Shown here one piece after another: positions 26,374 to 27,606 of a stretch of 64,000 nt of DNA (positions within the stretch are counted from its first letter, which is position 1; the number at the start of each line of letters is the position of its first letter). Below the pieces are notes generated by a model. It was given only the letters and a program-made list of their open reading frames with translations. It did no database searches and had not been told where the DNA came from. Source of the stretch: a virus (taxonomy: Duplodnaviria > Caudoviricetes); IMG/VR virus record IMGVR_UViG_3300020048_000103, positions 9,272-73,271 of that record, one strand, 5' to 3'. Made by a program: the position numbers and the translations under genes.

Positions 26374-26719
26374 AAAACTTGACAGGCGCGTGTTAATTCA
26401 CGCGCTTGTTATTTAATTGGGGGTGACTGGATTTGACAGCATTTGAGTAAGAATGAATTTTATGCAGGTAGTTATGCCTTGAAATAGCAAAACCAGTAAA
26501 AGGCAAAGTTGTAAACTTTACCAGTCGTATGACTCGCTTGGCAGCTTAGTTGGAACATAAAGTTGTATGGATTTCTCTATTAGATTAAATAGAGTGGTGG
26601 AGCAGGATTTAACCTTTACTACAACTTGGTTAGTCCCCACATCAGGAGTAAGATGTAAAAATACTCTAAGCATATAAAAAGGATTCATTAAGAAAGATTG
26701 TGTGGACGAGGGTTCGATT

Positions 26720-27557
26720 TAAGTAATGGATCGCCTCAAGAGTAATCTTGTTGATTAAACTGGATGAATTGCTGGAAAGCTAAGTAAATAAAAAATCCCT
26801 ATTACTGTAAAGTAATAAGGATTTTATTTATATGCCAATCAGCAGCCAAGCCTACAGAGTAGGAAGGTTCAGAGACTACCTGAGGTATAGCGATATATCT
26901 TAATAACAGGAAGTAGCTTACTGTAATGATTAAGTGAAAAAGCGTCCAGCTCTTAGCAGTCGGCTAAGATGATGATATAGTCCGGGTTTTAATGATTTTA
27001 TTCAAATCATCCTCAGAAATGGGGTTAGCGTGAATCATTCTATGACAATTGGGACATAAGCATAATAGATTTTCTAAAGTAGTTAATCCTCCATTAGAAA
27101 CTTCTATAATATGATGTAAATCTCTACTTGCTTTGTCCCAACCACATAGTTCACATGGTATTTTTTCAAAAATTTTATAATAGTATCTTATAGATAGACT
27201 TTCTTCAGAAATATCTTTCTGTTTTGCTCTATAATTTTTTTGTTTACATGAGTTTGAACAGTATTTAGCATTTTTAGAAGCAGCATTAAATTCTGCTCCA
27301 CAATGTTTACAAATTTGTTTGTATTGTAATTGTTTTGGCATTTTACCTGCACAAGATAATGAACAATATTTAGCATTTCCTCTATTCAATTCTCTAGAGT
27401 CAGCCATAAATGATTTACCACAGCATTCGCATAATTTTTCAATTTTTGACATATTTTTTAGTTTAATTTAATAGTACAAAGGTACAAAATTATTTTAGAT
27501 AAAAAGCTATAACGTATGTTAAAAAATGTTAAAAATTATATTTGCCAAATAAACTCG
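26720..27557 (+). mobile_element. Group I intron in the tmRNA T-loop (838 nt)
   Basis: P1 CGATT/GATCG with a U.G splice-site pair, AATTGCTGGAAA, AATCAGCAGCCAAG, GTTCAGAGACTA, GATATAGTCC, terminal G27557. Confidence 0.9.
26964..27452 (-). CDS. HNH endonuclease encoded antisense within the tmRNA intron
   Basis: Repeated CxxC...YCSxxC zinc motifs, DLHHIIEVSNGG...NLLCLCPNCHRMIH. Own promoter TACCTTTG at 27484-27477. Confidence 0.9.
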   Translation of the reverse strand: MSKIEKLCECCGKSFMADSRELNRGNAKYCSLSCAGKMPKQLQYKQICKHCGAEFNAASKNAKYCSNSCKQKNYRAKQKDISEESLSIRYYYKIFEKIPCELCGWDKASRDLHHIIEVSNGGLTTLENLLCLCPNCHRMIHANPISEDDLNKIIKTRTISSS

Positions 27558-27606
27558 CCCTCCACCTCCACGACTTCAACTATTTATTAATCTAACATTA
27601 ATCAAG

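Follow-up and report, generated by a model that had tools for sequence, protein, structure and literature searches.

Why should a gene for a DNA endonuclease lie backwards inside an RNA gene that it splits close to its 3′ end? The question is raised by positions 26419-27570 of the window, by which is meant here the whole 64,000-nucleotide (nt) stretch that was analysed, the right-hand part of a virus record of 73 kb in IMG/VR (IMGVR_UViG_3300020048_000103) estimated to be ~41% complete. The answer that we favour, with a probability of roughly 0.8, is that a mobile group I intron of phage lineage, carrying an antisense HNH homing-endonuclease gene, sits in the T-loop of the phage's own one-piece transfer-messenger RNA (tmRNA) gene. 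The initial annotation of this DNA had proposed a tmRNA with a T-loop group I intron between these coordinates, and that assignment holds: the Rfam group I intron model (Intron_gpI, RF00028) scores 84.2 bits, removal of the intron rebuilds the T arm, and a family of homologous loci exists. The pairing of this intron with a backwards HNH gene recurs in a family that is conserved and seems not to have been described; the kind of mobile element is a known one, and this example is real and probably functional.

Read from its sequence, 26419-26719 together with 27558-27570, both on the plus strand, is a one-piece tmRNA gene. The first exon has a tmRNA-like 5′ start at 26419 (GGGGGUGACUGGAUUUGAC) and contains the 5′ strand of the acceptor stem (26419-26425), the D-loop analogue GGAUUUGAC, P2, the pseudoknot region and the tag reading frame; its 3′ end (26708-26719) holds the 5′ strand of the T stem and all seven T-loop nucleotides. 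The second exon supplies the T-stem strand CCCUC (27558-27562), the acceptor strand CACCUCC (27563-27569) and the discriminator A27570. CCA is not encoded after it; CGA follows. The acceptor strands GGGGGUG (26419-26425) and CACCUCC pair at 7/7 positions, G3·U70 included, and leave A27570 unpaired. Deletion of 26720-27557 brings GAGGG-UUCGAUU (26708-26719) up to CCCUC, giving a 5-bp T stem with a 7-nt loop, and a T arm of the UUCRAnU-loop type is present only when this segment is removed. The initial annotation was therefore right that taking out these nucleotides rebuilds both the T arm and an alanine acceptor. The ligated joint, 26719/27558, is predicted to read GGGUUCGAUU joined to CCCUCC or, in a longer form, GGGTTCGATT joined to CCCTCCACC.

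The tag reading frame (26502-26549, plus strand) encodes GKVVNFTSRMTRLAA, ending in LAA, followed by a TAG stop. It can be compared with that of a related locus, L049, a 4-kb contig of the same one-piece layout, in which the tag is GKVVSFPQRVSARLAA; the two differ by an in-frame 3-nt indel, and RLAA-stop is retained. In this two-sequence comparison the P2 helix and one pseudoknot stem are likewise kept by means of compensatory changes. The first 22 nt of exon 1 are identical to those of intron-less phage tmRNAs that are called by both ARAGORN and Rfam (L005-L007), and the rebuilt T arm matches these tmRNAs too. An unbroken copy of the exact ligated 29-mer is carried by tmRNA genes in 30 IMG/VR contigs. 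When any base is allowed at loop nucleotide 7, the listed contigs number 80, the matches being 23 one-piece, 44 permuted and 14 unresolved (one contig carries two). No intron-less allele of the window's own lineage was seen among these 80 viral contigs sharing the T arm, none of which has an exon 1 alignable to that of the window.

The intron itself occupies 26720-27557 on the plus strand (838 nt), following the seventh T-loop nucleotide ('position 8') and ending in G27557. The RF00028 match (E=6e-20; gathering cut-off 50 bits) covers 26710-27005 on the plus strand. P1 has its U·G pair, U26719 with G26729, at the 5′ splice site, and the splice sites are fixed because a cut after U26719 combined with the terminal G27557 is the only combination that yields a 7-nt T-loop. 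The ribozyme core runs from P1 to P9.1 (26715-27024, plus strand). Its helices were placed from the Rfam alignment and the sequence, with P7.1/P7.2, P8 and P9.1 assigned by eye: P1 at 26715-21/26727-33, with U26719·G26729 at the splice site; the intron's P2 at 26737-50; P3 at 26760-66/26943-49; P4 at 26770-75/26839-44; P5 at 26779-80/26834-35, together with a long P5a hairpin; P6 at 26845-68; P7 at 26874-78/26978-82, its 3′ strand lying inside GAUAUAGUCC (26974-26983); P7.1/P7.2, a trait of subgroup IA, at 26879-26934; P8 at 26951-69; P9 at 26992-27010; and P9.1, with a GAAA loop, at 27011-24.

In an alignment of 11 homologous introns, 94.7% of the cells in cleanly aligned helices are paired (P7.1/P7.2 and P8, misaligned by MAFFT, were omitted from the pair count). 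Compensatory change affects 22 of the 44 core pairs across these introns, and none of 500 shuffles gave a value as high; sliding the partner columns, as a control, lowers pairing to ~30%. L049 and other relatives have C-G for the exon-internal guide pair that in the window is U26718-A26730. Since the pairs of the intron covary, the ribozyme is under selection.

The HNH gene lies at 26964-27452 on the minus strand, antisense to the tmRNA as the initial annotation had stated. Its 162 codons form the only long minus-strand open reading frame (ORF) in a block of plus-strand genes, and the product matches Pfam HNH (PF01844) at 39.6 bits, against a cut-off of 21.4, and the HNH endonuclease family phrog_1271 at 2.7e-24. 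The protein consists of two N-terminal Cys-rich repeats (NAK[YF]CS..C) and a C-terminal HNH domain with a CxxC...CxxC pattern; H113, H114, N128, H137, H141 and the cysteines C100, C103, C133 and C136, among them the catalytic His/Asn and the four Cys of the zinc site, are invariant across homologs. The ratio of non-synonymous to synonymous substitution rates (dN/dS) is 0.12-0.28 in five informative pairs, 0.15 in that with L049: the gene is under purifying selection.

Gene and ribozyme share nucleotides. The last ~23 HNH codons (26964-27034) are antisense to the 3′ strand of P8, the 3′ strand of P7, P9 and P9.1, so that this stretch is used twice. The terminal codons T-R-T-I-S-S-S-TAG are the reverse complement of 26964-26987, within which GAUAUAGUCC is found; the overlap of the ISSS-TAG end with the antisense of the catalytic core, which had been noticed earlier, is thus confirmed. 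The C terminus of every homolog reads (R/W)TISS(S/P), which corresponds, in an unchanged frame, to the antisense of GAnAUAGUCC.

As the HNH gene is on the opposite strand, after P9, leftward transcription from start signals of its own is needed. Two tandem TAnnTTTG motifs, a Bacteroidota -7 type consensus, lie on the minus strand at 27477-27492, 24 and 32 nt upstream of the HNH ATG: TACCTTTG at 27484 to 27477 and, adjoining it, TAATTTTG at 27492 to 27485. Both are retained in L049, as TAATTTTG TAATTTTG. The promoter that had been proposed for the gene at 27484-77 is accordingly there as a motif, and a kept one, but its function is a matter of a consensus match: TAnnTTTG is not enriched upstream of the genes of the window (five found, four expected), and none was seen upstream of the HNH genes of the crAss phages cr55_1 and cr118_1 on reading their sequences. 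It is plausible, given the match, that the tandem motifs are the HNH promoter. A terminator for the same transcript is a plausible role for the extended P5a hairpin (26792-26825), which has a GUAA loop, 15 pairs and an A run and a U run on its flanks, followed on the minus strand by TTATTT; on that strand it resembles an intrinsic terminator, ~140 nt past the HNH stop. The hairpin and its A/U flanks are retained in L049 with a different stem sequence; in L016 and many related introns short loops take its place. Close to the 3′ end of the intron is a further conserved element, AACGTATGT inside CTATAACGTATGT (27507-27519). AACGTATGT is identical in the window and in the crAss phages cr55_1, cr1_1, cr4_1 and cr118_1, the flanking TAT being variable, and it stands anywhere between ~5 and ~55 nt from the HNH ATG. 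Separately, the last 21 nt of the intron contain a plus-strand TAnnTTTG motif, TATATTTG at 27537-27544. The ATG of the next gene (27607) follows 63 nt downstream, and the motif may be an intron-borne promoter of that gene.

The same construction recurs in other phages. Full-length HNH homologs (~50% identity, tblastn) are present in the four RefSeq crAss phages just named, which cover three Suoliviridae subfamilies. In each of them the HNH gene is the lone reverse-strand gene of its neighbourhood and lies inside an opposite-strand group I intron that interrupts a circularly permuted tmRNA gene within its T-loop (in cr55_1, NC_055869, at 2764-3720 of locus L008; cr1_1, cr4_1 and cr118_1 are L010, L011 and L012). 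The RefSeq annotation of the stretches examined in these phages lists no tmRNA and no intron. Among the IMG/VR loci with an HNH homolog, 24 of 33 overlap the P7 core as in the window; ten of the 24 are one-piece (L016-L022 and L036-L038) and 14 are of the permuted type, and a pattern search did not find a 5′ acceptor in L039. These 24 P7-overlapping homologs (>=38%, that is at least 38%, identity) and the four from RefSeq have the same intron position in the tmRNA T-loop and the same frame overlap, and the intron strand is opposite to the HNH strand in every intron-bearing locus. In the loci whose splice sites were mapped, loop position 8 is the site of most introns and position 7 that of the cr55_1/cr1_1 group. 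Introns of clear homology are thus found at two of the four subsites that a recent survey (PMC11915505) took as a sign of separate invasions. No IMG/VR relatives were retrieved through the neighbouring DUF7873 protein or through a 26-mer across the exon-intron junction.

Four contigs binned into bacterial metagenome-assembled genomes (MAGs), L049-L052, resemble the same phage elements. The 'Flavobacterium sp.' MAG that holds L049 (G001:C283) also has an ordinary tmRNA (156 bits, G001:C31:9609-10006), and for this reason the L049 contig is probably a misbinned phage fragment; its binning hints at a host among the Flavobacteriia. In the HNH gene of L016-L022 (2501-2980 of the locus) there is an in-frame TGA at a conserved Trp (C-G-W) beyond which the frame continues, and these phages probably read TGA as Trp. 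Partial HNH homologs, ~40% identical over 100 residues, occur in the Prevotella Lak megaphages (L013-L015), within dense tRNA arrays and on the tRNA strand. In gut crAss phages, RAGATH-22, RAGATH-20 and RAGATH-9 RNAs (Rfam) stand just upstream of the permuted tmRNA on the same strand (L008, 1894-2107 and 5-139; also L010, L011, L023, L026, L027, L030, L033, L035 and L042).

That the element moves is suggested by the comparison with L049, whose HNH is 86% identical to that of the window. The intron core (88%), the HNH gene (87%) and the 3′ tail of the intron (85%) are all far closer than exon 1, at only 68%, a contrast that transfer of the intron between diverged tmRNA genes would produce. Both one-piece and permuted tmRNA genes harbour the same intron together with its HNH gene. 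The ribozyme core is also similar to introns that lack an ORF: these lie in protein-coding genes of Vibrio phages and, at 88% over 125 nt, in PolB of Cellulophaga phage phi14:2. In the Cellulophaga phage phi17:2 the syntenic site has no tmRNA and the genome no group I intron, and a BLAST search with the intron of 401 genomes from the bacterial class of L049's MAG matched only the L049 contig itself. On the reverse complement of L049 a second GAUAUAGUCC core motif appears at about position 693, ~1.5 kb upstream of the tmRNA T arm; it may belong to another group I intron.

How does this arrangement compare with what has been described? Group I introns in the T-loop of bacterial tmRNA are on record for 883 of 97,179 unique sequences, from 21 phyla (PMC11915505); the earlier remark that such introns are known but rare stands for bacteria, to which that figure applies. 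The window shares with these the T-loop group I intron itself, the -1 U·G pair in P1, the terminal G and the restoration of a 7-nt loop, and some of the bacterial introns bear a homing-endonuclease gene after P9. LAGLIDADG genes, the only type searched for, were found in 23 of 844 tmRNA introns, their orientation not being stated (PMC11915505). In the numbering of that paper the site in the window is loop position 8, reported there only from Saprospiraceae. Unlike the bacterial cases, the window's intron is in a phage, its endonuclease is an HNH enzyme encoded antisense, and its core resembles that of phage introns in protein-coding genes; its relatives, moreover, combine an intron with a permuted tmRNA gene. 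The tmRNA database contains 79 bacteriophage tmRNA sequences and has no 'permuted plus intron' among its tabulated forms (PMC11915505). Like other phage-encoded tmRNAs (PMC11915505; for mycobacteriophages, PMC3029335), that of the window is the phage's own and has a tag ending in AA. In the literature on known phage tmRNA genes we found no statement about an intron.

Among intron endonucleases more widely, I-HmuI of Bacillus phage SPO1 is an example of an HNH enzyme encoded on the sense strand, and I-DirII of Didymium iridis is a His-Cys box enzyme. The gene for I-DirII runs antisense to a group I intron in ribosomal DNA (rDNA) and is expressed from its own promoter (Johansen et al. 2006, as cited in PMC3073962). 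This case and the window have in common an endonuclease gene antisense in the group I intron of a non-coding RNA gene. I-DirII belongs to eukaryotic nuclear rDNA and has an RNA polymerase II promoter, a spliceosomal intron and poly(A), whereas the window has a phage tmRNA, an HNH enzyme and a candidate promoter; a further difference is that the codons of the window's ORF overlap the ribozyme core. I-PfoP3I, from the DNA polymerase intron of cyanophage Pf-WMP3, is a sense-strand HNH enzyme (PMC3428280). Phage introns of this kind are, like that of the window, of IA type (P7.1/P7.2) with an HNH enzyme, a probable nickase of the intron-less allele; they differ in residing in protein-coding genes, with a sense ORF looped out of a peripheral stem. 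In the literature searched, no phage tmRNA is described as containing an intron, and no group I intron of a bacterium or phage as carrying its endonuclease gene antisense.

We propose the following mechanism. Rightward transcription of the tmRNA gene would give a precursor of ~1.15 kb, in which the intron would fold from P1 to P9.1 and use guanosine for a cut after U26719. The U26719 end would then be joined to C27558, past the terminal G27557, with restoration of the T arm and of the alanine-type acceptor stem. We infer that this splicing takes place in vivo, and likewise that the HNH gene is transcribed from a promoter within the intron. The mature RNA would receive its CCA, be charged, and take part in trans-translation with SmpB of the host, which is presumably where SmpB comes from; the phage encodes ClpP alongside the LAA-ended tag. 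The HNH protein, with two zinc-ribbon-like DNA-binding repeats, would be the mobility enzyme of the intron. Most likely it would nick or cut the T-arm DNA of intron-less tmRNA genes in co-infecting phages, the intron being copied in by repair (homing).

Several observations count against a mobile, splicing intron in a working tmRNA gene. The Rfam tmRNA model (RF00023) gives 24.5 bits (E=1e-7) on the unspliced window, below its cut-off of 47, and ARAGORN at default settings calls no tmRNA in the window, whether unspliced or spliced in silico. The 73-kb record, ~41% of the genome, has no SmpB gene. A terminator-like hairpin of the upstream gene (26380-26411, plus strand; a 13-bp stem with seven G-C pairs, then a T-rich tail) ends 7 nt before the tmRNA 5′ end, and no promoter of the tmRNA was recognised; a sigma-70-type promoter scan came out at the level of shuffled sequence. 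The spliced joint 26719/27558 was found in none of the RNA or DNA contigs covering the region, a weak test in that these are contigs of relatives and not reads. Finally, the cleavage target proposed for the HNH enzyme is suggested by one thing, the constant position of the family in tmRNA T-loops.

For the tmRNA callers there is an explanation. The RF00023 alignment spans 26426-26720 and ends exactly at GGACGAGGGUUCGAUU, where it halts because the 3′ partner strands are missing there, being 838 nt downstream. The same model is above cut-off on exon 1 of L016, L022 and L038, directly adjoining the intron. ARAGORN calls a tmRNA in relatives only when the intron is cut out in silico at the predicted joints: six of these are permuted (cr55_1, cr1_1, cr4_1, cr118_1, L023 and L042) and one, L038, is one-piece. 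The joints were predicted by the same rules as in the window, and we take ARAGORN's failure on the window to be a limit of the caller. A call that ARAGORN made on the spliced window with lowered thresholds was rejected, the wrong 5′ domain having been chosen. The contigs in public sequencing runs include some from relatives that extend from exon 1 into the intron and HNH gene (X2, record 9; X3, record 17), and one from an RNA library lies over exon 1 (X19, 26427-26662, with seven differences); being from relatives, they carry no information on splicing, expression or strand.

Might the backwards gene serve to control the tmRNA? The initial annotation had raised the idea. By pairing with the pre-tmRNA along the 3′ two-thirds of the intron, an HNH antisense RNA would slow splicing, as would a collision of polymerases, so that expression of the endonuclease would set the level of mature tmRNA. 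The antisense layout is kept family-wide, as is the overlap of the ORF end with P7-P9.1, but conserved orientation is expected from common descent alone, and since overlap with the host RNA is a property of every antisense gene, complementarity alone is no evidence of regulation. The terminator-like hairpin (26825 to 26792) would extend the HNH transcript over P8, the 3′ strand of P3, the 5′ strand of P7 and P6; it is missing, however, in L016 and other relatives. The TGA at the conserved Trp in L016-L022 suggests that HNH is translated only under active recoding, and its timing may therefore differ from that of the tmRNA; recoding is compatible with separate timing but proves nothing. The promoter motif, as noted, is not seen in cr55_1 or cr118_1 and is not enriched in the window phage. 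On balance we regard such regulation as unlikely. We are equally doubtful of its fuller form, in which the backwards orientation is functional, convergent transcription or antisense RNA gating P7-P9.1 so that tmRNA maturation and HNH expression exclude one another, and in which a single lineage extends across one-piece and permuted genes.

A second alternative takes the HNH gene for an independent selfish gene that became lodged backwards after P9 and has no part in the homing of this intron, cutting, for example, tRNA genes. Distant homologs (28-33% identity, L040-L046) do stand free beside tRNA genes with no intron, as do those of the Lak phages, and close relatives of the core are found without HNH in Vibrio-phage genes and in phi14:2 PolB. 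HNH-less relatives of the core on the one hand and intron-less homologs of HNH on the other imply that intron and HNH have separate histories. Against present independence, the 24 IMG/VR and four RefSeq loci share the place of the intron in the T-loop together with the frame overlap, and intron and HNH are equally conserved relative to L049 where the exon is not, which suggests joint movement. We consider this alternative improbable, to about the same degree as regulation. Loss of splicing, with the split tmRNA a decaying pseudogene, is far less credible still, for although ARAGORN and the Rfam tmRNA model make no call on the gene and the spliced joint was not observed in relatives' contigs, all core helices are intact with compensatory changes, the tag frame, LAA end, P2 and acceptor stem are kept relative to a gene only 68% identical, and HNH is under purifying selection.

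On the favoured reading, a mobile intron with its own antisense homing gene, the locus has consequences for annotation. Standard tools overlook a tmRNA gene that is split by an intron, as ARAGORN and the Rfam tmRNA model do here, and recognition of the family adds a ribosome-rescue RNA to many crAss-like phages, abundant human-gut ones included. 'Permuted plus intron' is a gene form absent from the current tmRNA database list; were the spread of one lineage over one-piece and permuted genes to prove true, there would be a fourth tmRNA gene form, in abundant crAss phages of the human gut. The overlap at 26964-27034 is a compact natural case of dual coding, with the tail of a protein read from the antisense of a ribozyme's catalytic core. 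The locus also provides a simple system for asking whether antisense transcription controls self-splicing, and the HNH enzyme is a candidate site-specific nickase for a near-universal T-arm sequence.

The tmRNA gene is set in a block of replication and auxiliary genes, nearly all on the plus strand, that includes a PolA-type DNA polymerase, helicases, NAMPT and ClpP. A 708-residue protein of the window has 49% identity to proteins of the Cellulophaga phages phi17:2 and phi4:1, and 63% to a protein from a 462-kb uncultured phage; phi17:2 has been placed in the crAss-like 'epsilon' group (Yutin et al. 2021, PMC7886860). The host of the window phage is likely to be a member of the Bacteroidota. 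In public sequencing runs the complete region is present only in the probable source sample, an aquatic metagenome, and related sequences are present in runs from wastewater, lake and sludge. An HNH-type CxxCH motif also occurs in a second, shorter ORF at 23053-23430 on the plus strand, between tRNA-like pieces and a tRNA-Lys (23627-23701); no group I intron was detected near it, a scan of the whole record having given only the one in the tmRNA. On the minus strand at 3254-3326, ARAGORN reports a 'tRNA-SeC(tca)', likely to be a UGA-suppressor tRNA, and the ClpP match (41400-41915, plus strand, 180 bits) has one TGA inside. The candidate suppressor tRNA and the TGA in ClpP both point to TGA recoding in the window phage.

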